Of a stretch of 64,000 nucleotides of DNA, positions 4,654 through 27,518 are shown in pieces (position 1 is the stretch's first letter; the number at the start of each line of letters is the position of its first letter). The stretch lies in contig CAWCTR010000020.1 of assembly GCA_963798485.1 (NCBI GenBank), positions 41,361 to 105,360 of the forward strand, written 5' to 3'. The notes beneath the pieces are model-generated. The model searched no databases, was not told the origin of the DNA, and worked only from the letters and a program-made list of their open reading frames with translations. The stretch is from an uncultured delta proteobacterium. GTDB lineage: Bacteria; Desulfobacterota; Desulfomonilia; UBA1062. A program made the position numbers and the translations under genes.

Positions 4654-5477
4654 AGGTAACGATCATAGGCCTCGGGCTCATTGGTGCATCCATCGCGAAG
4701 GTCCTTCAAGGCACCACCCATATCACAGGCATCGACATGAGCAGCCGGGTTATACGGCAGGCACTTGAAGAGGGCGTGATATCAGATGGCGGTACCGACA
4801 TGGCTATAGCCTCGGGGAGCGACCTGGTGATTATCGCCGTGCCGGTAGGAAGCATAGTGGATGAAGCATTAAGGGTGATCAGATATATCGACGAGAATAC
4901 TGTCCTGACCGATACAGGTTCCACAAAGGCCACCATCGTCTGTCGCATTGACAAGGTCTTCCCCTCGTTCGTGGGATCCCATCCCATAGCAGGCAAGGAA
5001 AATCCGGGTTATACCTATAGCCAGGCTGACCTGTTCAAGGATGCTATGACCATTATCACCCCGTCGGCATCAACACGTCAGGGGTGCATCGCTAAGGTTA
5101 AGCAACTGTGGGAGACATGCAACTCCAGAACCCATATCATGGACCCTGTGAAACACGACCAGCTCATGGCCATCATCAGCCATATGCCCCACCTTTTGAG
5201 CTATGCATCCATGAGCATGGCAGGCGATCTTCATATACACAAACAACTCTTGGGCGCCGGTTTCCGGGACTTCACCCGCATTGCCGCCTCAGACCCCCTC
5301 ATGTGGAGGGATATCTTCCTGGAAAATAAGGATAATATCCTGCCCCTGATAGATAAATACTTAGAAGAGCTGAAGTTCATCAGGACCCTCATTGAAGAGG
5401 GAAAGACCAAAGACCTGGAAAAAGCATTATCATCTTACGCACAGATCAAGAGAGGTTTGTATGTCAATTCACGGTGA
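4650..5477 (+). CDS. tyrA: Prephenate/arogenate dehydrogenase
   Basis: GLGLIG Rossmann motif, DTGSTK, HPIAGKE, HD...SHMPH, GFRDFTRIA. Confidence 0.92.
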   Translation: MKVTIIGLGLIGASIAKVLQGTTHITGIDMSSRVIRQALEEGVISDGGTDMAIASGSDLVIIAVPVGSIVDEALRVIRYIDENTVLTDTGSTKATIVCRIDKVFPSFVGSHPIAGKENPGYTYSQADLFKDAMTIITPSASTRQGCIAKVKQLWETCNSRTHIMDPVKHDQLMAIISHMPHLLSYASMSMAGDLHIHKQLLGAGFRDFTRIAASDPLMWRDIFLENKDNILPLIDKYLEELKFIRTLIEEGKTKDLEKALSSYAQIKRGLYVNSR

Positions 5478-6705
5478 GATCACCCCTCCCCCGGACAAAT
5501 CCATTTCTCACAGGGCCTTCATGCTTGGAGCCCTGGCTGACGGTACTACTACCATAAGGAATTCCCTGAATTCAGAAGATATCAAGAGTACACGATCCGC
5601 CCTTGCTGCACTTGGTGTTGATATTCAAAAGGATGGAGACATATACCGGGTAAAAGGATCACAGATCAAGGAACCGATCCAGGTCATTGATGCCGGCAAT
5701 TCCGGGACCACAGCCAGGCTCATATGCGGCATCCTTGCCGGGCTGGACGGCATAATCACCCTCACAGGGGACAGCTCGCTTGTCCAGCGTCCCATGGCCC
5801 GTGTTATCAAGCCGTTAGAGCTTATGGGAGCGCGTTTTATGGCCCGCAAGGGCGGGTATCTGCCCCTGTCTATTAAGGGCGGCAGTCTAAGGGGGATCTT
5901 CCATCCCATGGAGATATCTTCCGCCCAGGTGAAGTCCGCCCTGCTTCTCGCCGGATTAAAGGCCGACGGACAGACCACCGTGAACGAGCCGTCACCAAGC
6001 CGTGATCACACTGAACGCATGCTTGGATACTTCGGGGCGACCTTGAGCCTCAGCCAGAAATCCGTGACTATAAAGGGCGGCCAGAAACTTGAGGCGCGTG
6101 ACATCATTGTCCCTGGAGATCCATCATCCGCTGCCTTCCCGATAGTATGGGCAGCCGCCGTGCCCGGCTCGGAGATTATTGTACGTGATGTATGTTTAAA
6201 TACAACCCGAACAGGATTTCTTGCAGTACTTGAGCGGATGGGTGCTCAGATCGAGAGGGGCAACGTACAGGTCAGGGCCGGAGAGCCGGTGGGTGATCTC
6301 ATAATACGTGGCTCCGAGCTCAAGGGCACTACTATAGCCGGTGATGAAATCCCCTCCCTGATCGACGAGATCCCCATCCTGGTAGCGGCTGCCGCACTGG
6401 CCTCAGGCACCACGGTCATCACTGATGCCAAGGAACTGCGGGTGAAGGAAACAGACCGCATTACCGCCATGGCGCAGGGCTTGTCACGGCTCGGCGCACA
6501 TGTTGAGGAACTCGACGACGGTCTCATTGTCAAGGGACTCTCACAACTGTCCGCAGGCAACATCTCAACATTCTCCGATCATCGGATCGCCATGTCGTTC
6601 TTCATCCTTTCCAGGGCTTCGGGAATTGACATCCGCCTCGATAACTCTGAGTGCGTGAATATCTCATATCCCACATTCTTCACGGACATGGAGAGGCTGA
6701 AATGA
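5461..6705 (+). CDS. aroA: 3-phosphoshikimate 1-carboxyvinyltransferase (EPSP synthase)
   Basis: DKSISHR, GNSGTT, SAQVKS, RDHTE, ELRVKETDR, DHRIAM; start at MSIHGE (5461). Confidence 0.96.
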   Translation: MSIHGEITPPPDKSISHRAFMLGALADGTTTIRNSLNSEDIKSTRSALAALGVDIQKDGDIYRVKGSQIKEPIQVIDAGNSGTTARLICGILAGLDGIITLTGDSSLVQRPMARVIKPLELMGARFMARKGGYLPLSIKGGSLRGIFHPMEISSAQVKSALLLAGLKADGQTTVNEPSPSRDHTERMLGYFGATLSLSQKSVTIKGGQKLEARDIIVPGDPSSAAFPIVWAAAVPGSEIIVRDVCLNTTRTGFLAVLERMGAQIERGNVQVRAGEPVGDLIIRGSELKGTTIAGDEIPSLIDEIPILVAAAALASGTTVITDAKELRVKETDRITAMAQGLSRLGAHVEELDDGLIVKGLSQLSAGNISTFSDHRIAMSFFILSRASGIDIRLDNSECVNISYPTFFTDMERLK

Positions 6706-16300: not shown

Positions 16301-17547
16301 TCCACCCGTACATACCCCAACTGTGGTCTGCCATGTTGAACCACTACGGCTACGAAACAAACGCCATGGGCGAGGAGACTGCCGCCGAATGCACGGCAGG
16401 CAGGGCATTATGCCGCGGGAGCGAGTGCCTGCCGGCAGCGGTTACTACCGGTAAGTTTCTCTCGGTAATCAAAGACGGCCCGGCAAACTGCCACCAAACC
16501 CTGTTCATGCCCCGGGCAGAAGGCCCTTGCAGGTTTGGTCAGTATGCAACACTCCAGTCCATGATCTTTGACCGGGCAGGGTATAAAAATATCAGCATAT
16601 TCTCTCCCACTTCAGAGGACGGATATACCTTTCTTACGCCCAGGATGGAGATGGATATCTGGAAGGCTATCTGCCTGGGTGATGCCTTGTTCAAGCTGCG
16701 GTGCCGGGTATTGCCCTATCATAAACACCCGATCATGGCAGAGGCCCTCATCAAGGAAGTCCTTGATGAAATCTGCGGCCTGATCCGCACAGGCAAAGAC
16801 TGGAAGGTGGCCCTGTCATCGCTGACAAACACACTCAGCATCGATTCGGGACTCGATCAACCGTTAAAACCGCTTGTGGGTATTGTGGGCGAGATCTTTG
16901 TTCGGCTCAACAGCTTTTCCAACCAGCACATCGTGGAGACCGTGGAGGCCAATGGCGGCGAGGTCTGGTTATCACCCTTTTCGGAATGGATTCATTATGT
17001 CCGGGACATCCTTGCCATGAGATCAGGGCCCGTTAAGAAGCTTGGCACGCGCATTAAGAACCATATCCTCCATAGGGTTGAGAGGGACATCATATCCCTC
17101 TTCTCACCGGTGCTCGACCATAGACATGAGCCTTCCATAGCAGCGGTCATAAGCAAGGCCAAGAGATTCATCCCGCCGACCTTCGAGGGAGAGGCTATCC
17201 TCACGATTGGAAGGGCCAAATTGTTTGCTGAACAGGGGGCAAGCCTTGTGGTGAACTGCTCGCCCTTCAGTTGTATGCCTGGAAGGGTAACTTCGCACCT
17301 GTTCCAGACCTACCGGGATTATTTCCAGGTACCGGTGGTGAACCTGTTCTTCGATGGCACAGGCGATATTTCGAACCAGGTGGGGATCTATCTGAAATCC
17401 ATAACCCAGGCCTATACAGAAAAGCGCCCTATGCCCTCCACAATCTTCCAAAAACCAGGGAAGAAGCCTGCAGCCACTCCGTGGGCAAAGGTTATGGGTG
17501 ACTCCCTGCAGGAAGATATCTTTGATGATGAATACAGGAGCAAGTAG
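13306..17547 (+). CDS. Acyl-CoA dehydratase activase-related protein (two BadF/BcrAD ASKHA ATPase domains plus DUF2229-like region), copy 1
   Basis: GIDVGS and GVDIGSTSTK, two CAAGTGSF motifs, EIGGQD, SCGPDSF, DEH..TGYQTRIEAF. Confidence 0.9.
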   Translation: MNVSFLGIDVGSSYIKLWYEDVSGSVITARNIHHRGSPQSTVINELSCLNPEPMFLSFSGNLAGQDIMGWHHEGLLSEIDYLRKMYPSRQLLIFGAEKIELVNFDESGHILFYQTNPSCAAGTGSFLDEQMLRLGLDFSDLPHIAIDESAPLVATRCAVFAKTDIIHLQQDGHTAYSIYNGLCKGLVLSSLKSVFGGNLPNGSGIIATGGLLENLHIRHYLKQVFPMIQIAQDPAFTRARGLSLAARLHGQNFTGFMTILKEHTPGKARSSALRPLKLKKSAFPATEMTRRTDNYGNEIWHDLCENESLEVFLGVDIGSTSTKAVLTDTKGTIRLDIYTKTSGNPIEATKRIFQGILSVQKDLPCSIAIHGCATTGSGRKLIGTIIGADLIVNEISAHAKGALTLDENVSTIFEIGGQDAKFIRIENGRIVDVNMNYVCAAGTGSFVEEQARTLDMSLDEISAKVMGVIPLPNSDRCTVFMNQEITRQISSGYPKDQIMAGVLMAVFKNYVSKVVGNRNYNKDKIVFQGATARNKGLVAALEQITNAQVMVSEFCHVMGAYGAALLTKGKGLGKTSFRGLVIPDVSIKEKACKGCENTCRITFVKAGTEKTSWGYMCGREPGAQSEERKINQSVKIRDDLLKGYKTALQKGTHAFKMPALGLYEEFLPLLTEVASACDLSIEVCYPGKNEIQKELSAIGSGDFCYPIKVAMACVNVLLKEDPSSRILLPFLIQDIKDDSIHPRSYYCPFITTVPSFFKDKTLSSRVFTPEIDLSRSIPWQARQIWDFLKRSGIDGINPFKIITGIRRGMEKLEQHRRELTSKATSILDDVGDEKAIVLLGRPYNLYHRILNLGIPELIESLGYRVITMDAIPDDITNKDITGLYPDMYWYQGQRLLKKALSIRNMPNLFPLMISNFSCGPDSFILTYFEEICSDKPYLILELDEHGSATGYQTRIEAFIDMIEQHSGCSIQAPHISKSARIRYSIEDIRHNTKVWIPQIHPYIPQLWSAMLNHYGYETNAMGEETAAECTAGRALCRGSECLPAAVTTGKFLSVIKDGPANCHQTLFMPRAEGPCRFGQYATLQSMIFDRAGYKNISIFSPTSEDGYTFLTPRMEMDIWKAICLGDALFKLRCRVLPYHKHPIMAEALIKEVLDEICGLIRTGKDWKVALSSLTNTLSIDSGLDQPLKPLVGIVGEIFVRLNSFSNQHIVETVEANGGEVWLSPFSEWIHYVRDILAMRSGPVKKLGTRIKNHILHRVERDIISLFSPVLDHRHEPSIAAVISKAKRFIPPTFEGEAILTIGRAKLFAEQGASLVVNCSPFSCMPGRVTSHLFQTYRDYFQVPVVNLFFDGTGDISNQVGIYLKSITQAYTEKRPMPSTIFQKPGKKPAATPWAKVMGDSLQEDIFDDEYRSK

Positions 17548-17690
17548 AAGATACAAATAGAAGATAATAATGACCACTACAAAATGGAAAGCGATTATGA
17601 AGGCGCAATAAGCAGTTCGCTAACAACACCACCCATACCATATCAATAAACAAGGTCCGCCTTATAATTCCTATATCTTTATTAATCTAA

Positions 17691-17713
17691 TGGTCGGGCA
17701 GTGGGGATTTGAA
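17691..17713 (-). repeat. tRNA-Pro 3'-end fragment (att-like copy 3)
   Basis: TGGTCGGGCAGTGGGGATTTGAA, 21/23 identical to 26615-26637. Confidence 0.75.
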
Positions 17714-17911
17714 ACACGAAACCGTATTGTATCTAAGCCACTCCACAGGCCGCTGCGTGAGAATCACGTGAAAGTTGAAAATTAGTTGGCTGAGAAAATT
17801 CTTGAATACCCCCTCCCCTGACAATAATATGCTGATACAATAAATACGTTATTATTGAGATTGACTCTTTCTCCGATATGATATACGTGTATAGCATAAG
17901 GGAGAGAACCT

Positions 17912-18136
17912 ATGCTTGCTATCCGACTTCCCGCAGAAATTGAAGACCGACTTGAAGCCCTGGCAAAAGCCACCGGACGGACTAAGACCTATTATGCCAG
18001 AGAGGCAATTCTTGAGTATATTGACGACCTGGAAGATGTCTACCTTGCCGAGAAACGGCTGGAAGATATCCGAGCAGGCCGAACAAAGACCGTTCCGCTC
18101 GAAAAGATCATGAAACGCCATGGCATGGAAGGTTGA
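17912..18136 (+). CDS. RelB-like ribbon-helix-helix antitoxin
   Basis: MLAIRLPAEIEDRLEALAKATGRTKTYYAREAI RHH; acidic EDVYLA segment; overlaps the toxin gene. Confidence 0.88.
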   Translation: MLAIRLPAEIEDRLEALAKATGRTKTYYAREAILEYIDDLEDVYLAEKRLEDIRAGRTKTVPLEKIMKRHGMEG

Positions 18137-18392
18137 GCTTGACCCCGCAACAGTGCGGGATTTAGACCGCCTTGATAAGCAAGTTGCCCGACGCATCCTC
18201 AGTTTCTTATATGAAAGGGTTGCTCAACTGGACGATCCACGCAGCATCGGCCAAGCGTTGCAGGGTTCCAAATTTGGAGAGTTCTGGAAGTATCGCGTGG
18301 GTGACTGGCGAATAATCTGTAAGATAGAAGATAAACGAATAATTGTGTTAGTTCTCCGTATTAGACATAGAAGTAAGGTATACAGGCCCTAG
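18120..18392 (+). CDS. RelE/StbE-family type II toxin
   Basis: DDPRSIGQAL...FWKYRVGDWRIIC...IRHRSKVY, a RelE signature. Confidence 0.9.
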   Translation: MAWKVELDPATVRDLDRLDKQVARRILSFLYERVAQLDDPRSIGQALQGSKFGEFWKYRVGDWRIICKIEDKRIIVLVLRIRHRSKVYRP

Positions 18393-18425
18393 AAAATCCA
18401 GGTCACCATGGAATCGATAGTAAAC

Positions 18426-18529
18426 TGGCCGGGAAGCGGGGATTTGAAGACTATTCCCTTGATTATAAACCGTCATCAGGCCTAATTCTACAGACTCGTA
18501 CAGGATTTATGTCCGAGACTTGTCCGAGT
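18426..18529. repeat. att-like repeat: tRNA-Pro 3' fragment plus conserved arm (copy 2)
   Basis: Core 22/23 identical to the tRNA end; 87/104 identical and gapless versus 19971-20074. Confidence 0.85.
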
Positions 18530-18718
18530 CAAAATCATGAGATATTAAGTTCATTATTGAGAGTAAATTAATAATGATCCGTCATGACTCCTTATCGAAT
18601 ATCATGGTGACTTCATAAGTGCCGTAGCTTGATGTCATGCATGTTGTTTATAGTTGTAGTGATTCGAATAAATTAGATTTATCTTGCATCCTTGCAATTT
18701 GGAAGGTAGTATTCCAAT

Positions 18719-19885
18719 ATGCAAGGTATTTACATTCCCAGATCTCTAGAAAACGATGTACGTCGTGGACTTGAGGAATTCCCGGCTGTGGCAGTCTTGG
18801 GTCCGAGGCAGTGTGGTAAGTCAACCCTGGCAAAGCATGTTATTGAGAGCTTCCCGCAGAGTATCTATCTCGATCTCGAACGTCCGTCCGATGGGCGCAA
18901 GCTTACCGATCCCGAACTGTTCTTTGATCACTATAAGGACAGGCTCATCTGCCTGGATGAGATCCAACGTCTCCCAGAAATCTTCACCATATTAAGAAGC
19001 ATGATCGATGAAAGAAGGAGGCCTGGTCAATTTCTCATTCTTGGATCAGCTTCTGGTGATCTGCTCCGGCAAAGCTCGGAGAGTCTCGCAGGTCGTATTG
19101 CCTACCTGGAATTGGCACCTTTCAGTATTAATGAAATATCTGATCGACCTGTGAGTACTCTCTGGTTACGCGGAGGGTTCCCCTCAGGCTTGCTTTCTAA
19201 TGATGATCAGTCAAGCTTCCGCTGGCGACAGAATTTTGTTCGCACGTTTCTGGAACGTGACATATCCCAGCTTGGAATCCGGATATCTTCAGCCTCAATC
19301 GAGCGTCTCTGGCGCTTATGCGCACATTATCATAGTCAGCTGCTCAATCTCTCGGCCATTGGGAGTTCTCTGGGGATAACCCATCATACCGCCCGTTCCT
19401 ATATCGATCTTCTCAGCAAGACCTTTATGCTCAGGGTACTTCCCCCGTTTGAGGCAAATGCAAAGAAAAGGCTTGTGAAGTCGCCGAAAATTTATATCCG
19501 GGACAGCGGACTGTTGCATACATTACTGGGAATTCGGGAATATGAAGATCTGTTGGCACACCCTGTATTCGGGGGATCTTGGGAAGGTTTTGTTATTGAA
19601 AACATACTGACTTGTTTGCCTGACTGGAATCCGAGTTTTTATCGTACCTCTGCTGGCGCGGAAATAGATCTTGTGCTTGAGAGAGGCAAACATAGGATTG
19701 CCATCGAATGTAAGGCATCATCTTCACCGTCAGTCACGAAGGGATTCTGGTATGCCCTCGATGATATTCAACCCGATGAAGTCTTGATTGTGGCTCCGGT
19801 CAAGAAAACGTACCCCATCAAAGAAGGAGTGATGGTTATTCCTTTGCAAGAGCTTGTGCAACACCTGATGAAAAAATCCCCATGA
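18719..19885 (+). CDS. AAA+ ATPase with DUF4143 (PD-(D/E)xK-like) C-terminus
   Basis: GPRQCGKST, LDEIQR, ESLAGR, KRLVKSPKIY..DSGL, EIDL...IECK. Confidence 0.9.
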   Translation: MQGIYIPRSLENDVRRGLEEFPAVAVLGPRQCGKSTLAKHVIESFPQSIYLDLERPSDGRKLTDPELFFDHYKDRLICLDEIQRLPEIFTILRSMIDERRRPGQFLILGSASGDLLRQSSESLAGRIAYLELAPFSINEISDRPVSTLWLRGGFPSGLLSNDDQSSFRWRQNFVRTFLERDISQLGIRISSASIERLWRLCAHYHSQLLNLSAIGSSLGITHHTARSYIDLLSKTFMLRVLPPFEANAKKRLVKSPKIYIRDSGLLHTLLGIREYEDLLAHPVFGGSWEGFVIENILTCLPDWNPSFYRTSAGAEIDLVLERGKHRIAIECKASSSPSVTKGFWYALDDIQPDEVLIVAPVKKTYPIKEGVMVIPLQELVQHLMKKSP

Positions 19886-19992
19886 AGGATTTAAGAAAAT
19901 TATTTGAAATGTATCAGGCTCTTCTCATCGAGAATGGAGCCCTGAAGAAAGAAAATCAATTATTGAAAGATGGTCGGGAAGCGGGGATTTGA
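19882..19992 (+). pseudogene. 5' fragment of a homolog of the 21225-24080 helicase gene, truncated at the att repeat
   Basis: MKDLRKLFEMYQALLIENGALKKENQLLK is 21/29 identical to the helicase N-terminus; ATGA overlap with the ATPase stop. Confidence 0.8.
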
Positions 19993-20074
19993 AGACGGTA
20001 CCCTTCGCTGCAAACTTTCATCAGCCCTGCTTCTACAGACTCGTACAGGGTTTCTGTCCGAGACTTGTACGAGT
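19971..20074. repeat. att-like repeat: tRNA-Pro 3' fragment plus conserved arm (copy 1)
   Basis: TGGTCGGGAAGCGGGGATTTGAA is identical to 26615-26637, followed by an arm with three YTGTMCGAG-like motifs. Confidence 0.9.
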
Positions 20075-20090
20075 TCAATTGAATAGTTTA

Positions 20091-20144
20091 TTATACCGGA
20101 GAGTCGACTTGAATCCCCACATCCACAAGGGACTTCGGATTTTG
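20091..20144 (-). repeat. Degenerate tRNA-Leu 3'-half fragment
   Basis: About 40/54 identical to 26337-26389, including CTTCGGATTTTG. Confidence 0.6.
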
Positions 20145-20339
20145 GTTTCGTTAAAGCAAAATATCAAACCCCTTGATCTTAGGTCTTATTTTCCGTAATA
20201 CCTTAAATTTAGGTCAATTTATGATTTCAATCTATTCCCTTACAGTCTATCAGTTCTCACATTTTTCCTTGGATTCTAGCACAATTTTAGCACAGTTATG
20301 GCGTATGTTAAGTAGCAGATATTATATCTAATCACCATA

Positions 20340-20979
20340 AATCATAAGAAGACAGACAGGATATACCGGGAAGAAGGGTTATCGTTGAGGAGAAAGAAGA
20401 GGAAGAAGCTCCTAGGAATAAGGGTTGCCCCTGAATTAGCTACGAGAGTGAATGAGGTATGGTCCATGGATTTCGTGTCAGATGCACTTGCATGCGGCAG
20501 GAGATTCCGAGTGCTGACGGTTGTGGACGATTATTCCCGATTGTCACCTGGACTTGAAGTAGCCTCATCGCTTCCTGGGCAGAGGGTAACAAGATTTCTT
20601 GACCACGTGAGCTTGAACCATGGATATCCAGAGCGTATCCGTGTGGATAATGGGCCGGAGTTTCTTTCCACGAATTTTACCGCCTGGGCTTTGAAGAAAA
20701 GGATACGGATTGAATATATCAGGCCGGGCAAGCCTTCAGATAACTGCTACATTGAGAGCTTCAACGGTAAGTTCAGGGACGAATGTCTCAACGAGAACTG
20801 GTTTCTGAGTATCAAGGAGGCCAAAGAGATCATTGAAGGATGGAGGGCCGAATATAACGAGATCCGCCCGCACAGTTCCCTAGGGAACTGTACTCCTTGA
20901 GTTTTACAGGGAACACCAGGCCGTGCTAAAAAGAAAAAATACTTGCCTTGGAAGTGGCCTAGTCAACGGGGTAAGGTCA
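20340..20979 (+). mobile_element. IS3-family insertion sequence remnant (truncated OrfB plus right end)
   Basis: [14 protein letters not shown]...WSMDF...DNGPEF...[14 protein letters not shown]...RPHSSLG DDE core; no OrfA; early stop after NCTP; probable terminal repeat ending GGGGTAAGGTCA at 20979. Confidence 0.85.
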
Positions 20980-21224
20980 AATATACCGATATGGGAGAAA
21001 TCAAGGCACGCGGTCGCAAACGTCTTGCCGTAAAACAGAAAAAGCCAAAGTCCTAATGCCGCTGATGTTCACGATAGTGTTGTGTTCACAATTAATGAAC
21101 GATGATGGATCGTGAACTACATCAATTAACCAAAATTGATGCAGCCCATATTTAATCAATTTGCACTATTTCATGTAACTAAGGCTCAGCATCCATTGTC
21201 TCTGGTTTGGATCTCATAGTTTAG

Positions 21225-24080
21225 TCAATGATTCAGGGATTCACTCGATAGCGACAAGCTTTTCATCAGCTCATGGGCAATGTTTGGGCTTTCGAGCCGC
21301 ATAATGCTTTCTTCAGCACTCCCAAAGCTCAAAAGATTGATACTCCCATACCAGATGATTCTTTGGTCCAATGCAGAAAATTTCTGGTGGATATTGGATT
21401 TGAACACCAATTGGACACCGGCTTTTTTCAACAAATCCAGGACTTCCTCCAGAGCTGTTCTGTTCTTGTCCTTAAAATCGGAGGCCGGTCTTGTCACAAC
21501 TACCACCTTAACGCCTTTCTCCAGCGCAGCACCTAAGTGTTGCAGCATCTGAAGAGCACGTCTCTTCGTAACAAATGGGCTTACGATCAGGACCTCTCTT
21601 GAAGCATTCATCAAATCATTACTGTATACGGGAAGAAAATTGCTTTTATCGAAAATGATGTTCACGGATTCATCGCCAAGGCTTTCCGCCTTCGCGGAAT
21701 AGCCTATGGACGCATATCCGGCAAGTCTTTTACCATACATTTTTTCCAGCATCCTTACATGGATATCGACGTAGTCGTAAATCCGGACCTCCTTTTTGTC
21801 TTCAAACAAACGATGCAGCCTGCCTGCGTATTGCTGCAATGTCCCTTTCCATGATATGGGCATGGCTAGAAATAAAGTGTCCAGGCGAGGCTCGTCAAAA
21901 CCTTCGCCTATGTATTTGCCGGTTGCAACCAGAGTTAAATGCTTATCAGCAGGCACATTGGTTATCCTAGCAAGCACCTCTCTCGTTTCTTTAACTCCGC
22001 GCCCGCCCGTTAGAGTCATCACGTCCGGTATCTTTTCACTCAACATCTTTGCCAGCAATTCGACATGGGCGGTTCTTTCAGTCAAAACGAGTGAATATCT
22101 TCTTTCAGAAAAGTTTTTAATCACATCATCGATAATGAATTGGTTCCTGAATTCATCTTTGGTTATCTCGGTATATAGTTCCTGGATCGAAAGGCCCTTT
22201 TCATCCTGTTCAAACGGTATCCTGAAGCCGGTGAATCTGGGAATTATGTAATGTGCGAAAGGTCTTTTTTCCGCCTGAGATCTGGCGTCAACCCTGTACC
22301 TGACCGGCCCGCAATGCATAAAGATAATAGGATGGTGTCCATCCTGCCTTGTAGGGGTAGCCGTCAATCCATACACATATTTCGCCTGAACGGCTTTAAG
22401 TATCTGCTCAAAGCTGAATGCCGGGACGTGATGGCATTCGTCCACGATCACCATACCATAATTCCTGACAAGATCTTTTACTTCACCGCTGTTGTTCAGG
22501 GACTGCATAATCGCAATATCGATGATGCCACTCGGATTATCCTTTCCTGCTCCTATCTGGCCGATCAGGCTTTGCTTTTTCTTTCGTCCCCGTCTTTTCT
22601 CCAATACCGGGAGTTTCTCTTTAATGTTCAAGAACTCGGACATCCTTGATGTCCACTGAGAAAGCAGCTGTTGCCTGTGTACTAATATCAGAGTGTTTGT
22701 CTTTCGTTCTGCAATCAATTTGGCTGCTATAACTGTTTTTCCAAATGCTGTTGTTGCAGAGAGAACGCCATGATCATGCTTCATCATCTCATCCAACGAA
22801 AGCTTCTGTTCTTGTCGAAGTTCACCTTTGAATGAGACATCAATGTATTTCCCGGAATTTGTATGATCAGATAAGACCACTTCAGCAGCCGCCTCAGCGA
22901 GTAGGCTTGTAACATCGGCTTCACATCCTCTCGGCAGGCACAGGTATTCCGGTGTCTCATCTGAGCACGAAATGACCCTCGGTTTGTTATAGGTTGGCAT
23001 TCGCATAGCCTGGGCTTTGTAAAAATCCGGATTCTTAAAGGCAGCAAGCCTTTTTAAAGCGTTCAATGCCTTCTGTGAAATACCTAATTTCTTGATGTAG
23101 AACATGTTCGCTCTTACGAGCTCGACCTTTTTGGGAAAATCATCCTTTGACCATTTGATCCGACTCGGCTCCCATGGTTTCACCTCTTCTTCATCATCTT
23201 TCTTCAGAACCCCAAGCTCACTCCCATGGCAAAGCTTTGATATCAGCATGCCAACATCTGATTCAGACAGTTTCCTTATTCTGTTCAAGAATCCCCATTG
23301 GTCTTCGTAGGGATGGAAGCCATCATCAATGAAAACGCTGTTCCCTTTCTCCCGTGCTTTCTTCTGCAGCGGGAGCGCAATGAGGTTGCCGAAGCCGCCC
23401 TTCGGCATTGTATCCTGGTTGGGGAAAAATCGGTCATAGGATTTGAATGTGATTTCGTGACGTCTGCCCATCGAATAAGTCAACAGAGCCGTGCCGAACT
23501 TTCGTGCAACGCTCGCGGATATGGGGTCTGTGAAGAAAAACCATGCATGGGCACCATTACCAGAACGAGAACGCTCAACGACCTCGGGGATATCGAATTC
23601 CTTACAGACATCCCTGAGCGTGGAAACATCTTTTTGCCAGCCGTCGTCGTCAAAGTCGATCACCAGAAAACTACACATTTCATCTTGTCGCAAAGGATAA
23701 ATCCCCACAACAATGTTCCCCCTCAAATGACCCTCAATAACTTTCTCGCTCAAGGCAACGTATGATTTATTCGGGCATTCTGAACATTTTACAGCAGGCT
23801 TCCTGCAGGTGCCTGATCTCCATTCATTCAAACACACCGGCGTATATCCGGATCTGCCTTCTCTATTTTCCCATCTCCTGGCATAAATATCGTCTCTCCC
23901 TTTGAACAGGGACATAAACAATCTGATTTTTTCTAAGGGATTAGGGTCAACATGACTTTCTGCCTGCACCGGTTCAGTGATGCCCAACCTGACCTTCAAT
24001 AACTCATTCTCTTTCTTCAGGGCTTCATTTTCGACGAGAAGAGCCTGATACTTCTCAAGCAATTCTCTATAACCCTTCAT
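21225..24080 (-). CDS. AEP-primase-like (TOTE-type) + SF2 DExH helicase + PLD-nuclease fusion
   Basis: DFD and RSGNGAHAW primase motifs; TTAFGKT, DECHH, TAT, EGFDEP, QQYAGR helicase motifs; HQKF..D...GSIN PLD motif. Confidence 0.85.
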   Translation of the reverse strand: MKGYRELLEKYQALLVENEALKKENELLKVRLGITEPVQAESHVDPNPLEKIRLFMSLFKGRDDIYARRWENREGRSGYTPVCLNEWRSGTCRKPAVKCSECPNKSYVALSEKVIEGHLRGNIVVGIYPLRQDEMCSFLVIDFDDDGWQKDVSTLRDVCKEFDIPEVVERSRSGNGAHAWFFFTDPISASVARKFGTALLTYSMGRRHEITFKSYDRFFPNQDTMPKGGFGNLIALPLQKKAREKGNSVFIDDGFHPYEDQWGFLNRIRKLSESDVGMLISKLCHGSELGVLKKDDEEEVKPWEPSRIKWSKDDFPKKVELVRANMFYIKKLGISQKALNALKRLAAFKNPDFYKAQAMRMPTYNKPRVISCSDETPEYLCLPRGCEADVTSLLAEAAAEVVLSDHTNSGKYIDVSFKGELRQEQKLSLDEMMKHDHGVLSATTAFGKTVIAAKLIAERKTNTLILVHRQQLLSQWTSRMSEFLNIKEKLPVLEKRRGRKKKQSLIGQIGAGKDNPSGIIDIAIMQSLNNSGEVKDLVRNYGMVIVDECHHVPAFSFEQILKAVQAKYVYGLTATPTRQDGHHPIIFMHCGPVRYRVDARSQAEKRPFAHYIIPRFTGFRIPFEQDEKGLSIQELYTEITKDEFRNQFIIDDVIKNFSERRYSLVLTERTAHVELLAKMLSEKIPDVMTLTGGRGVKETREVLARITNVPADKHLTLVATGKYIGEGFDEPRLDTLFLAMPISWKGTLQQYAGRLHRLFEDKKEVRIYDYVDIHVRMLEKMYGKRLAGYASIGYSAKAESLGDESVNIIFDKSNFLPVYSNDLMNASREVLIVSPFVTKRRALQMLQHLGAALEKGVKVVVVTRPASDFKDKNRTALEEVLDLLKKAGVQLVFKSNIHQKFSALDQRIIWYGSINLLSFGSAEESIMRLESPNIAHELMKSLSLSSESLNH

Positions 24081-24084
24081 ATAT

Positions 24085-24561
24085 TCATCGCTCCTGTAAC
24101 CACTTCTTTCTTTCCGTCTTTAGTTCTTGTGTCATGGATTTGATCATATTCGGACCAATCAATACTTTCCTGTCAGCTATGAGCCCATCGCAAACAAGAA
24201 AGCCTTCATATGGTAATATCGCTGTGTCAATGACAATCCAATCCGGAATTAGCTCTTCCAATGGAGTTGTCAGAGCCTTGACACATAACCAAGTGTTATC
24301 CAAACGCCTGAATGCATAGCCTTGCTTATACTTCTTAGCATAGATGAACATACCGTAGATTGAGCTTCTTACAGCAAGAACAAAAGACTCGTTGTATGAA
24401 GAATCGAATGCATAACACTTGTTGAACTCTTTCTTATAGAGCTTGTTGCGAGCCTCAATATAGTCGTTGATGTCCTCCATTGGTTTGGCTGCAATAGTGA
24501 CAAGAAGGCGTTTGTATTGCATAAGAAAAGTACTGGCGTGTGAAGGATCAATTAGAGCCAT
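24085..24561 (-). CDS. Hypothetical protein in the island operon
   Basis: 158-aa ORF, co-oriented, ending 4 bp before the helicase start. Confidence 0.7.
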   Translation of the reverse strand: MALIDPSHASTFLMQYKRLLVTIAAKPMEDINDYIEARNKLYKKEFNKCYAFDSSYNESFVLAVRSSIYGMFIYAKKYKQGYAFRRLDNTWLCVKALTTPLEELIPDWIVIDTAILPYEGFLVCDGLIADRKVLIGPNMIKSMTQELKTERKKWLQER

Positions 24562-24605
24562 ATTTCATACCGCTTACAGTTTTTCTTCCTTCTGTTTATT
24601 CATTA

Positions 24606-25520
24606 TTATGTCCATGGTCCCCCAGCTTCCCAGAACTGTTTGAATGGCTTGTTCTGAGATGCAGCACTAAGCGGCGGAATAAGAAACTCTTGGAGTCTCT
24701 TAACAACTTCAGACAGGACAATTGTTTGTTTCCATCCGATTCGAGAGAGGAAAACATTCCATTGTTTGTTTCTATCTTCATCTCGTGCAAATTCCTCGCT
24801 GAGGCCGATAGGAAATTGTTGGGGAATTGACGTCTTCCTTCTTTCAAAGGTAGCTTTCATTGCCTGCACAAGACTTGCGCCTTTGAAAGAGAAACTCCGG
24901 GATAATACCCACATATCGAAATAATCTTTCATCCGAGAATTTTGCATACCCAAGGATACTATCGTCTGAGTTTTTTCTGAGATGACGCTTTCCATTGGAT
25001 ATGCCCTGATCCTTGGTGCAGGGAGGTTGAGAATGGTTGGATAGTCTACTTCTTCCGGTGGTGGTGCTACTGCATCACCAAACCCTACATCAACCTGTAT
25101 TCTTATCCGCGCACCTGCCAAGTATGCAAAGAAGAGCATTCTTTTACCGGTATACTCCTGATCTTCTCTGATATCCGTCACACTGAAACTATCCTGGTCA
25201 AAGGTCAATCCATCCGGTTCGACTTCTGTTGTGCAGATTTCCTGAAAAAGATTGATTATCTGTTTATCAGAGAGATCTCCATAACCGAGAAGATCAAGGT
25301 CGCGAGTAGGTCGGTGAACACCACCACCCCAGATTTCAAGCAGAAGAGCACCTTTGAGAATAAATCTATCGACGAAGGGTGAAACCCCAATACGGTATAG
25401 AAGGCGCTCAAGCGCATAGCGAGTAAGCACCAGGTCAAAAGGATCACCAGCCTTCCTTGAGACATTCAAAAGCCTCTCCCTAACCGATGCGGCAATATTA
25501 GTAGGAGATATCTTGCTCAT
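24606..25520 (-). CDS. AbiEii-family nucleotidyltransferase toxin (type IV TA)
   Basis: FILKGALL...RPTRDLD, SEK, NSRMKDYFD. Confidence 0.92.
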   Translation of the reverse strand: MSKISPTNIAASVRERLLNVSRKAGDPFDLVLTRYALERLLYRIGVSPFVDRFILKGALLLEIWGGGVHRPTRDLDLLGYGDLSDKQIINLFQEICTTEVEPDGLTFDQDSFSVTDIREDQEYTGKRMLFFAYLAGARIRIQVDVGFGDAVAPPPEEVDYPTILNLPAPRIRAYPMESVISEKTQTIVSLGMQNSRMKDYFDMWVLSRSFSFKGASLVQAMKATFERRKTSIPQQFPIGLSEEFARDEDRNKQWNVFLSRIGWKQTIVLSEVVKRLQEFLIPPLSAASQNKPFKQFWEAGGPWT

Positions 25521-26125
25521 AGGAGGGCCTGAATGTAAGGCTTCATTACCTTTTCTACCCTACAGATCCGGCTGTACTTCCAGATCTCATCCATCGTGCA
25601 TTTACGTTGAGACCAGCAATCTTTCAGTGCCTCGAGGGCAACATCGGTACCGATCTTGTTTCGATATTTAAAACAGTCTGCAACCGTTTTAGGCGCATCA
25701 TAAACCTTTACCTGAACACCATCTATAACATGCTCCTCAATCCCCTCAGTAAGAGCCTGGGCAGAGAAGCGGACAAATCTGATGGATGGATAATCCACTT
25801 TGGGGAGCCTGGATTTACGATCAATGACCATCCACACCTCAAATGGAGCCTGTGATGTCAGACCATGGAAACTCAGAGCTGACAGTAGGCATAGAATTCC
25901 GTTAGGGACACGCTTAGCAGCTTCAGCGAATGTATGATGCTCGGTAACATGGATACCAGGGAGGGTATAAAGCCCTCTTCCTATCTTTATTATCAATCCT
26001 CTCTGATAAAGGCGCTGAAGGTACGTTCTTGGTATGGATCGAACATCCAGATCGCGGGGACGGAGCACGCCTTTTCGTTTGATGAGTTTCAGGACTTCTT
26101 CCGACTGGCTCTTTTTCATTCCCAT
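25517..26125 (-). CDS. AbiEi-family antitoxin/transcriptional regulator
   Basis: wHTH ending IGRGLY, CLLSALSFHGLT, KTVADCFKYRNKIG; 4-bp overlap with abiEii. Confidence 0.92.
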   Translation of the reverse strand: MGMKKSQSEEVLKLIKRKGVLRPRDLDVRSIPRTYLQRLYQRGLIIKIGRGLYTLPGIHVTEHHTFAEAAKRVPNGILCLLSALSFHGLTSQAPFEVWMVIDRKSRLPKVDYPSIRFVRFSAQALTEGIEEHVIDGVQVKVYDAPKTVADCFKYRNKIGTDVALEALKDCWSQRKCTMDEIWKYSRICRVEKVMKPYIQALL

Positions 26126-26129
26126 ATAT

Positions 26130-26177
26130 TGTTACATTATGTTGGCACTTGTCAATATATGCCTACACTATGTAACA
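26130..26177 (-). promoter_or_regulatory. abiE promoter/operator: 18-bp inverted repeats flanking a TTGACA -35
   Basis: TGTTACATTATGTTGGCA and TGCCTACACTATGTAACA (15/18 inverted match); TTGACA on the minus strand at 26150-26155. Confidence 0.7.
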
Positions 26178-26336
26178 TTAATTGGCTTAACCAAGCTTAT
26201 TAAATGAAGGTTTATCTACAAAGAGTCTTCGGTTATCGATTGAAGTAATGGATGGGATTAAGAAGCCGTTTAGCACAATTTTATAATAATCCGAAGTGCC
26301 TTTTGGTAACTGCTGACTCGTAACTTATGGAATTCA

Positions 26337-26391
26337 TGGTGCCTGAGGGGGGACTCGAACCCCACACTCGCAAGGAGCTTCGGATTTTGAG
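26337..26391 (-). pseudogene. 3' half of a tRNA-Leu(CAA), att-like fragment
   Basis: Minus strand CTCAAAA anticodon loop, variable arm, GGTTCGAGTCC T-arm, ...CAGGCACCA; no D-arm or 5' acceptor strand. Confidence 0.8.
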
Positions 26392-26614
26392 ACCAAAAAA
26401 TAAATATTTGCGAGACTGATCACCAATTAAGGCCAACAAAAAACATATTTCAGCCGATACTAGTCGGACTCCTTAGTGAAACAGACATGTTAATGAAAGG
26501 TTATTATAGTTACAAAGGGAAGGTAAATTAACATTAAATTAGTTAGTTGCAGCAGGTAGCGGGGATTTATTTAACTCATTCCTATATAACTAATTGATAT
26601 TATTATAGTTATGA

Positions 26615-26691
26615 TGGTCGGGAAGCGGGGATTTGAACCCCGGACCCCAGCGTCCCGAACGCTGTGCTCTACCAGGCTGAGCCACTTCCCG
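26615..26691 (-). tRNA. tRNA-Pro(CGG)
   Basis: CGGGAAGTGGCTCAGCCTGGTAGAGCA-CAGCG-TT-CGG-GA-CGCTG...GGTTCAAATCC...CCCGACCA. Confidence 0.96.
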
Positions 26692-26747
26692 AAACCAAGG
26701 TCTATCTATAGAAAAGAATCACTTTCTAAGTCAAGCACGTTTGCTCT

Positions 26748-27518
26748 TTATCGTTTTTTGTTTTCAAAGGTGATAAAATCCTCGCGCATCACACGATGAT
26801 CCATCTGGCTCTTTACATCCAGGGGATACTCTCCATAGTTGAATGCCCATAGATCCTTGCCTAGCCTCTGCAACGGTATGGCAAACTCCAGCTTGAAGAA
26901 GAGCTCACTCCTGTCTCGGCCGGCCTGCAGTGTATCATTCCTACCGCCGGCACTGATAAACAGGGACTTTATAGGCTGTAACTGGATCATCATGGACATC
27001 CCGGTCATGTCCTCCCTGTCCTTGCCTGCAAAATAATAAAACCCAGGCCATACAGAGACAAAGGGGGCATTCGGGACAGGAATACCGAAGGTAAGGTCAA
27101 TCCCCTGCAGTGCCTCTTCGCCATTATTTTCATTCGAAACAGGCAGGTAGAGGTTCATGTGTCCGGAAAAGTTTGCATGGTACACCTCAAGGCCGGTACC
27201 GAATCTCTTAAGGTAATCGTTCGAGGTATAATCATAGAAAAGGTTCCAACCCCCGACCACCAATCCGCTCAACATCGGCTGCCTTCCTCCAACCCCGAGA
27301 TCAAGGCCGGGTTTTCCACCATTTAATGTAAGCATGGGCTGTGAGAACAAGGACATGGAATCGAGCTGCGCGAGCCACACAAAGGCATCAGCGTAATAAC
27401 AGGGGTTCGACTCGTTGGATACCTTCAAGCCCCCCCCGGTCCAAATAAGATCAGGCGCGCCCGCATAAAGCATGGACCCGGCCAGGCAGAATATGATAGC
27501 AAAAATCAATTTCTTCAT
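26748..27518 (-). CDS. Outer-membrane beta-barrel protein, inverse-autotransporter beta-domain-like
   Basis: Signal peptide; LGVGGR, GWNLFYDY, RFGTGLE, NLYLP, terminal V.RE..I. Confidence 0.6.
   Translation of the reverse strand: MKKLIFAIIFCLAGSMLYAGAPDLIWTGGGLKVSNESNPCYYADAFVWLAQLDSMSLFSQPMLTLNGGKPGLDLGVGGRQPMLSGLVVGGWNLFYDYTSNDYLKRFGTGLEVYHANFSGHMNLYLPVSNENNGEEALQGIDLTFGIPVPNAPFVSVWPGFYYFAGKDREDMTGMSMMIQLQPIKSLFISAGGRNDTLQAGRDRSELFFKLEFAIPLQRLGKDLWAFNYGEYPLDVKSQMDHRVMREDFITFENKKR

Follow-up and report, generated by a model that had tools for sequence, protein, structure and literature searches.

Among elements whose integrases target transfer RNA (tRNA) genes, the stretch from the T-loop to the 3' end of the gene is one class of integration sublocation. 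Cis-mobilizable elements (CIMEs) are, as defined in PMC5704250, elements that can be mobilized in cis and that stand in tandem accretion with integrative and conjugative elements (ICEs) or integrative mobilizable elements (IMEs). Such accretion was first described for ICESt1/ICESt3 of Streptococcus thermophilus. The window analyzed here is a stretch of 64,000 nucleotides from an uncultured delta proteobacterium (assembly GCA_963798485.1, contig CAWCTR010000020.1, positions 41,361 to 105,360 of the forward strand; genome G000 below), and it holds an array of three repeat-bounded units beside a tRNA-Pro(CGG) gene. The array is best read as a tandem accretion of decayed integrative elements, similar to CIMEs and now probably immobile; we consider this reading probable.

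The tRNA-Pro(CGG) gene lies at 26615-26691 on the minus strand (ARAGORN; Rfam tRNA, 64.3 bits), and copies of its 3' end delimit the array:

26615-26637: attachment (att) core on the attL side of the array; the 3' 23 nt of tRNA-Pro(CGG), from T-loop to CCA (ARAGORN, pattern search)
19971-19993, plus strand: att copy 1, 23/23 identical; boundary of units 1 and 2
18426-18448, plus strand: att copy 2, 22/23 identical; boundary of units 2 and 3
17691-17713, plus strand: att copy 3, 21/23 identical; outer boundary of the array

The presence of repeat-bounded units next to tRNA-Pro(CGG) is confirmed, as is the outward drop in repeat identity that a preliminary description of this DNA had noted (0, 1 and 2 mismatches at 19971, 18426 and 17691). 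All four copies of the 23-mer are in direct orientation on the plus strand (pattern search, at most 3 mismatches), and the copy at 19971 matches the tRNA end over 25/25 nt, including 2 nt past the end of the gene. A fifth match in the window, with 3 mismatches at position 868, is the neighboring tRNA-Pro(GGG) gene (868-944); the whole 4.3-Mb assembly holds one further match at the same threshold, a tRNA-Val gene, and shuffled sequence gives a mean of 0 matches over 100 shuffles. Measured from repeat to repeat, units 1, 2 and 3 are 6644, 1545 and 735 bp long. The DNA left of the 17691 copy is homologous to the tRNA-downstream flank of relatives with an empty site; relative to these the array is an insertion, which upholds the earlier view of the repeats as att scars of site-specific integration, and direct att repeats arising from integration into the end of a target gene are also one of the defining features of CIMEs.

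In the proposed history, one family of tyrosine-integrase elements of the Syntrophales/Smithella-like lineage uses the 3' end of tRNA-Pro(CGG) as its chromosomal attachment site, and three such elements would have inserted in succession. Each insertion would have restored the tRNA end with its own copy and displaced the earlier copy outward, so the RHH-ParE unit would be the outermost and oldest and its repeat the most decayed; the earlier suggestion that the newest unit stands beside the tRNA fits this order of decay. Each unit would later have lost its tRNA-proximal module, which in intact relatives comprises the integrase gene and the proximal arm repeats. The att-flanked remnants left behind would be an RHH-ParE pair, an AAA_14-DUF4143 ATPase gene with the stump of a TOTE gene, and AbiE with a TOTE gene, and these would persist because they carry addictive or protective genes.

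The same site is found in several states among relatives, most of them in the genus of the host and two from other genera:

G003: empty; 153 bp between a conserved BcrAD/BadFG-type open reading frame (ORF) and tRNA-Pro(CGG)
G007: no array; the closest relative, with flanks 90% identical
G002: a Phd-ParE unit of 0.8 kb and an island of 16.2 kb, both between exact repeats
G010: one 667-bp RHH-ParE unit
G011: a 1.3-kb nucleotidyltransferase unit (NTase pair)
G013: a TOTE gene directed toward the tRNA, then a homologue of the arm at 26519-26614
G005: two integrase pseudogene pieces beside the tRNA
G019 (other genus): a 1.5-kb AAA_14-DUF4143 unit, with a C-terminal integrase remnant just past the outer repeat
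G061 (other genus): an intact integrase at tRNA-Pro(CGG), of the same family and 66% identical

The flanks of G002 and G003, and those of G011 and G007, align right up to the core. The G002 island encodes a 414-aa tyrosine integrase whose gene ends 15 nt from the tRNA; it is considered an IME because it carries this integrase together with a MobA/MobL relaxase-helicase and a type IV secretion system (T4SS) coupling protein, in addition to a Fic protein. The preliminary description had held that erosion of full-size integrase-bearing islands would be the true explanation if such islands were found in relatives and no same-sized cassettes occurred elsewhere: the islands do exist (G002, G061), as do eroded integrases (G005, G019), but a same-sized counterpart of unit 3 occurs elsewhere as well. 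Across the order, the core is present with at most 2 mismatches in 43 of 52 genomes and in more than one copy in 9 of these 43. Contigs end exactly at the tRNA-Pro(CGG) core in five loci, L044, L046, L047 (G061), L048 and L049 (G065); since contig breaks at the core are a signature of multi-copy att arrays, the nine genomes with arrays are probably a lower bound. At L036 (G019; 589-2376), a direct repeat of 87 nt consists of the core and 64 nt of tRNA-downstream sequence, its copies being 94% identical.

Every unit end was aligned across G000 and its relatives, and a common att plan emerges, in which the core is followed by about 30 nt with ...CAGG at their end and these by two tandem repeats of 10-11 nt. 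The motifs of these arm repeats are distributed as follows:

G002 island: ACGGGGYAA, both arms
G002 small Phd-ParE toxin-antitoxin (TA) unit: TACACGGCACT, both arms
G061 island: ACGGGACAG, both ends
Unit 3, G010, G011, G019 and L134: ACGTGAAAGT, distal arm only, on inspection of unit 3 and G010
Units 1 and 2: AGACTYGTMC, distal arm only

The att architecture is thus modular, and its arm-repeat motif differs from one element lineage to another. Where an island bears an integrase, its proximal repeats stand within or next to the 3' end of the integrase gene. In each of the three G000 units, arm repeats are found on the distal side only, as expected if an integrase and proximal-arm module had been lost; within the G000 genome the arm-motif pairs of the units are confined to the array.

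Contig C20, which bears the array, has no match to PF00589 or PF00239, compared with 23 and 5 matches elsewhere in the genome; the earlier statement that no unit encodes a recombinase is therefore correct for both the tyrosine and the serine type. The G002 integrase finds nothing in 17000-27000 by tblastn (best E 1.9), and 22 integrases searched by phmmer against the window's ORFs of at least 50 aa find nothing either. No relaxase or T4SS genes are found in the array by Pfam on the main ORFs and part of the small ones; the units thus resemble CIMEs in having neither integration nor transfer genes. The array is probably fixed in this genome, to judge from its sequence, because it has no cognate integrase, its arms are one-sided and its cores are decaying.

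Unit 2 is visibly truncated and contains the following features:

18719-19885, plus strand: AAA_14-DUF4143 ATPase (Pfam DUF4143 1.8e-46, AAA_14 1.2e-29)
19882-19968, plus strand: 29 codons from the start of a second, diverged TOTE gene, which breaks off at the 19971 att copy
18449-18530: unit 2 distal arm with repeats AGACTCGTAC (18492) and AGACTTGTCC (18516)

The ATPase corresponds to the PADLOC candidate system PDC-S01 (8.4e-96), and the ATG of the TOTE stump overlaps the stop of its gene. The stump aligns with the 5' end of the full TOTE gene of unit 1 (24080-23994) over 87 nt free of gaps, with 89% identity over a 57-nt inverted match; since this gene is broken off at the att copy, unit 2 is itself a stump. 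The distal arms of units 1 and 2 are 84-87% identical. Integrases of this kind, which target tRNA genes, cross over at the T-loop. An integrase-mediated event at a secondary site was considered as the source of the truncation and set aside, as the break is at the CCA end and not at the T-loop of the core; a deletion by microhomology (8/10 nt) would fit the sequence better. A strict pattern of the junction between units 1 and 2 finds 0 further copies in the genome contigs. One metagenome contig, L135, matches a looser junction pattern; it is without the full core, and the match looks like chance.

Unit 1 is the largest of the three and adjoins the tRNA:

26519-26614: tRNA-proximal arm, non-coding and AT-rich, carrying a core-like half-site AGCGGGGATTT
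26337-26392, minus strand: tRNA-Leu(CAA)-like relic, the 3' 56 nt from anticodon loop to CCA
25517-26125, minus strand: AbiEi antitoxin/regulator (Pfam AbiEi_4 4.7e-10; PADLOC AbiEi 2.7e-88)
24606-25520, minus strand: AbiEii nucleotidyltransferase toxin (Pfam AbiEii 4.1e-43; PADLOC 1.2e-114)
24085-24561, minus strand: 158-aa ORF with no Pfam or PADLOC match
21225-24080, minus strand: TOTE-type protein of 951 aa, with AEP primase-polymerase, SF2 helicase and PLD nuclease
20330-20900, plus strand: 5'-truncated OrfB (DDE transposase) of the insertion sequence (IS) family IS3, ORF 20385-20900; a deletion scar
19994-20075: unit 1 distal arm with tandem arm-type repeats AGACTCGTAC (20037) and AGACTTGTAC (20061)

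The AbiEi and AbiEii genes are adjacent, as in AbiE systems, and overlap; they are predicted to function as a type IV TA or abortive infection system. The 951-aa protein matches AEP-TOTE (Pfam 1.6e-103, profile positions 1-227 of 230), ResIII (1.4e-24), Helicase_C and PLDc_2 (2.2e-12) as well as PADLOC PrimPol (9.8e-93); with its AEP-TOTE domain fused to a helicase and a nuclease it is a TOTE protein in the sense of the Pfam label PF22548. The preliminary description had named a defence-type cargo of AbiEi/AbiEii, an ORF, a primase-helicase-PLD protein, an AAA+/DUF4143 protein and a TA pair, which Pfam and PADLOC bear out. For the 158-aa ORF the Atlas gives clusters of hypothetical proteins only.

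The remaining parts of unit 1 are of mixed origin. The truncated OrfB (Pfam rve_3 1.6e-29, rve 1.2e-19) has no intact copy in the genome, and the tRNA-Leu relic, which is oriented like tRNA-Pro, is 89% identical to the true gene at C27:12505-12560; the transposase remnant and the relic together make unit 1 a scarred mosaic. The relic suggests that part of the unit once belonged to an element or island at a tRNA-Leu gene, and it also accounts for the very high metagenome contig depth at 26337-26392. Rfam finds nothing in the 489-bp gap beside tRNA-Pro(CGG) except the tRNA itself. The homologue of the proximal arm that adjoins tRNA-Pro(CGG) in G013 is 78% identical over 74 nt. In the distal region, 20153-20309 is 75-77% identical to C7:627728-627884 and C13:17210-17336; the former sits just upstream of a tRNA-Lys(CTT) gene.

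Species-representative genomes hold 324 loci related to the TOTE protein, and the best 80 of these (60-77% identical; L050-L129) were examined. AbiE-like genes stand beside TOTE in 8/80 of these loci (tblastn) and AAA_14-DUF4143-like genes in 10/80, in four cases directly upstream and co-directional; both partners that TOTE has in units 1 and 2 thus recur. From locus to locus, the position upstream of TOTE alternates, with an AbiEi/AbiEii pair in some and an AAA_14-DUF4143 ATPase gene in others; no homologue of the 158-aa ORF is found near the 80 homologues by tblastn. A tRNA gene on the opposite strand lies within about 1.3 kb past the TOTE stop in eight loci; in four (L050, L116, L127, L129) a tRNA-Asn gene lies about 100-140 nt from the TOTE end, a slot usually held by an integrase, and an integrase-like ORF occurs within 10 kb of TOTE in six. 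Within the fetched flanks of the TOTE homologues with a tRNA, a second copy of the tRNA end is found only at L072 (22 nt). From these neighborhoods TOTE looks like a common cargo at the tRNA-proximal end of islands.

Unit 3 is the smallest, and its recurrence weighs against a history of decay:

17912-18136, plus strand: RHH (CopG/DUF6290) antitoxin (Pfam DUF6290 3.5e-07, RHH_1 3.7e-05)
18120-18392, plus strand: ParE-family toxin (Pfam ParE_toxin 1.5e-16)
17714-17775: unit 3 distal arm with tandem repeats TGCGTGAGAAT (17754) and CACGTGAAAGT (17765)

The two genes overlap, as in ParDE-like type II TA systems, and are preceded by a conserved stretch that is the unit's own; the arm type is common to G010, G011, G019, L134 and L136. 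The history of decay from an integrase-bearing ICE or IME would accord with the truncation of unit 2, the scars of unit 1 and the IME and integrase pseudogenes at the same att site in relatives, but several observations weigh against it. The single 667-bp unit of G010 is homologous to unit 3 throughout, with both genes intact. L134, a Syntrophaceae contig, has two diverged tandem copies: the end of a G000-like copy, an att core and then a G010-like copy with the same arm type, in which ParE has an internal TAG and is followed by an IS. L136, a contig of a Desulfomonilia metagenome-assembled genome from a different class, holds the module at 5210-6102 with the same arm type and a degenerate core (RHH 92% and ParE 90% identical at the protein level, 81% at the nucleotide level). 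Independent decay to an identical minimal boundary is unlikely, so unit 3 would appear to spread as a unit. The small Phd-ParE unit of G002 retains arm repeats on both sides; an intact integrase is found at the site in only two genomes of the order, compared with nine that have extra copies of the core; and in three metagenomes short pieces of the unit 1 genes reach about 97-99% identity to the window, against about 89-93% for flank pieces, a hint that unit 1 may have moved recently between relatives that are about 90% identical. Finally, the G000 units have no detectable integrase remnant (tblastn with the G002 integrase), and for unit 3 no parent element is found; the loss of the integrases by deletion is therefore inferred and not seen directly. 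The order of events and the present immobility are inferred as well.

Further detail on unit 3 comes from its homologues. The ParE copies of G010, L134 and L136 are 87-90% identical in amino acids, and the ParE stop lies about 17-36 nt before the proximal core in the three copies that keep one (G000, G010 and copy A of L134). An att-like 23-mer (at most 4 mismatches) is present in 3 of the 80 ParE-related loci fetched; L132, examined in the search for a parent of unit 3, has no core. A 3' fragment resembling tRNA-Pro(GGG) is 190 nt away from the L136 module, which may thus be associated with this other proline tRNA as well.

The spread of unit 3 is accounted for most simply by cis-mobilization with a partner IME, for which a core and a distal arm would suffice. 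This leads to an alternative for unit 3 only. As a one-armed CIME, unit 3 would accrete beside an integrase-bearing IME and be mobilized in cis, excising and transferring with this neighbor by means of the proximal arm of the IME and its own distal arm, and it would stay behind when the IME leaves or decays. Unit 3 has the core and distal arm, with no proximal repeats, that excision of such a composite would need; G000 has it in the outermost position and G010 has no other unit, IMEs of the same att family are present in the group, and co-transfer of a CIME with an ICE is described in PMC5704250. The identity of unit 3 between G000 and G010 (77-82%) is also higher than that of the flanking genes (70%), in addition to the 81% nucleotide identity seen in the other class. 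However, no element has ACGTGAAAGT on the integrase side of the core, where a parent of unit 3 should carry it, among 185,579 species genomes (0 matches), no composite with a matching IME is observed, and the arm motif of the G002 IME differs from that of the small unit adjacent to it; this alternative is judged rather unlikely. A broader proposition, that the small att units at tRNA-Pro genes of Syntrophales and neighboring lineages include true minimal integrative modules, which lack a recombinase and were acquired repeatedly and across classes via co-resident or co-transferred integrases, is put forward tentatively, as a possibility that is doubtful at present. Its clearest candidate, the RHH-ParE unit, would combine a tRNA-derived core, a single arm with tandem integrase-binding repeats, the conserved stretch before the genes and an addiction pair.

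The preliminary description had gone further and viewed the whole array as an integron-like stockpile, in which the units are true minimal cassettes that never had an integrase and are moved in trans, with the tRNA end as their collection point. Small units bounded by exact repeats and lacking an integrase do occur in G002 (0.8 kb), G010 (0.67 kb), G011 (1.3 kb) and G019 (1.5 kb); the recurrence of unit 3 as a unit, its tandem copies in L134 and the two-sided arms of the small G002 unit would also be in keeping with such cassettes, and two integrases that could in principle act in trans are resident in the genome, on contigs C7 and C8, being 75% and 67% identical to the tRNA-Pro integrase. These have different targets and different arm motifs, and no integrase island in the genome has motifs that match those of the units, so the resident integrase linked to the same arm that was to be sought is not found. 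The C7 integrase (C7:385756-387040) adjoins an odd 86-nt tRNA-Cys(GCA)-like gene. Its target shares 13 identical nt of T-loop and T-stem with tRNA-Pro(CGG); cross-reaction at tRNA-Pro(CGG) is conceivable on this ground, but nothing supports it. On C8, a 19-nt copy of the T-loop core of the transfer-messenger RNA (tmRNA) gene lies at 118456-118474 beside a convergent integrase (118542-119759) near the tmRNA; in the region 116247-119759 the tmRNA and the integrase island are thus separated by a unit of 1.85 kb that has no integrase, and further copies of the tmRNA core lie about 62 kb away at C8:180803-180899. Such an arrangement, with the small C8 unit proximal to the integrase island, would be expected of a unit that integrated by means of a resident integrase.

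For the array itself the stockpile is not supported. Unit 2 breaks off within a gene, unit 1 is a mosaic with scars, and the one-sided arms are of at least two motif types, which imply at least two integrase specificities and not one common system. None of the G000 units has arm repeats on the proximal side, the array has neither an integrase beside it nor a common promoter, both strands carry genes, and decay is seen in the outer cores. The metagenome data consist of contigs only, and no single run covers half or more of the locus; the joints listed are 20662>20757, 21792>22420 and 26604>26346 (11 nt between), and none of them falls at an att or unit boundary, so the excision-circle or deletion junctions that mobile cassettes were expected to leave do not appear in the metagenome contigs. 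Movement of the units in trans as minimal cassettes is thus considered unlikely.

Other features of the metagenome contigs concern individual units. With 0 differences on the flanks, metagenome X4 seems to represent the same strain; its contigs bridge the 17691 and 18426 repeats, while its cover over 19840-26349 is almost nil, with no contig joining across unit 1, and no inference is drawn from this. A contig of X1 skips 627 nt of the TOTE gene (21792-22420). The TOTE homologue of G013 (L038) lacks about 626 nt (22195-22820), at coordinates about 400 nt off the X1 gap.

A last alternative, that the repeats came from the tRNA 3' end by unequal recombination or a local duplication and not by site-specific integration, could draw on the G019 duplication that reaches 64 nt past the core on the tRNA-downstream side, but the contents of the units differ, an attP-type arm bearing tandem arm repeats stands behind every repeat, as in the integrase-bearing islands, and relatives have clean empty sites, all of which makes it highly improbable.

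Taken as a tandem accretion of decayed elements, the locus is a well-delimited case of defence and addiction genes that accumulate at a tRNA hotspot and outlast the mobile elements that carried them, in an uncultured syntrophic lineage whose mobile elements are barely described. One site can be followed through many states among relatives: empty, occupied by a full IME, with an integrase pseudogene, or with integrase-less remnants. If the RHH-ParE unit moves without an integrase of its own, the CIME concept would extend to recombinase-less cassettes at tRNA sites; if the minimal-module proposition is true, tRNA ends would be open collection points for addiction and defence genes.

Compared with described systems, the array is of a known kind, in which decayed integrative elements accrete in tandem at a tRNA hotspot, and it fits known biology. 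It is most similar to CIMEs: the units are flanked by attL/attR at the 3' end of a target gene, have no integration or transfer genes and are stacked by later integrations at the same att site, and a related functional IME exists in G002. It differs in its host (uncultured Thermodesulfobacteriota/Syntrophales), its target, tRNA-Pro(CGG), and a cargo of TA and defence genes only; three remnants stand together with no functional partner in the genome, mobilization would be putative here, and the RHH-ParE unit recurs across genomes as a one-armed module of 0.7 kb. With tRNA-targeting tyrosine-integrase islands and IMEs the array shares the duplicated tRNA 3' end, the plan of core and arm repeats and, in relatives, an integrase that abuts the tRNA; unlike these, the G000 units have neither an integrase nor proximal arm repeats. 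Integron arrays are similar in being a row of small, recombinase-less gene units, including TA genes, at one site, but an integron has intI, attI and Pc, with cassettes that are bounded by attC sites, themselves imperfect inverted repeats, and are mostly promoterless and co-oriented, and no intI, attI or attC is present here; the boundaries are direct copies of a tRNA end followed by attP-type arms, the genes lie on both strands, RHH-ParE has its own upstream stretch, and there are at least two arm specificities. Xer-dependent dif modules and integrative mobile elements exploiting Xer (IMEX), such as the pdif modules of Acinetobacter, are likewise small, recombinase-less TA or accessory modules at recombination sites, with the recombinase encoded elsewhere; these use XerC/D sites and host Xer proteins and are mostly found on plasmids, whereas the sites of the array are tRNA-derived att cores of a lambda-type integrase family, at which action in trans is putative.

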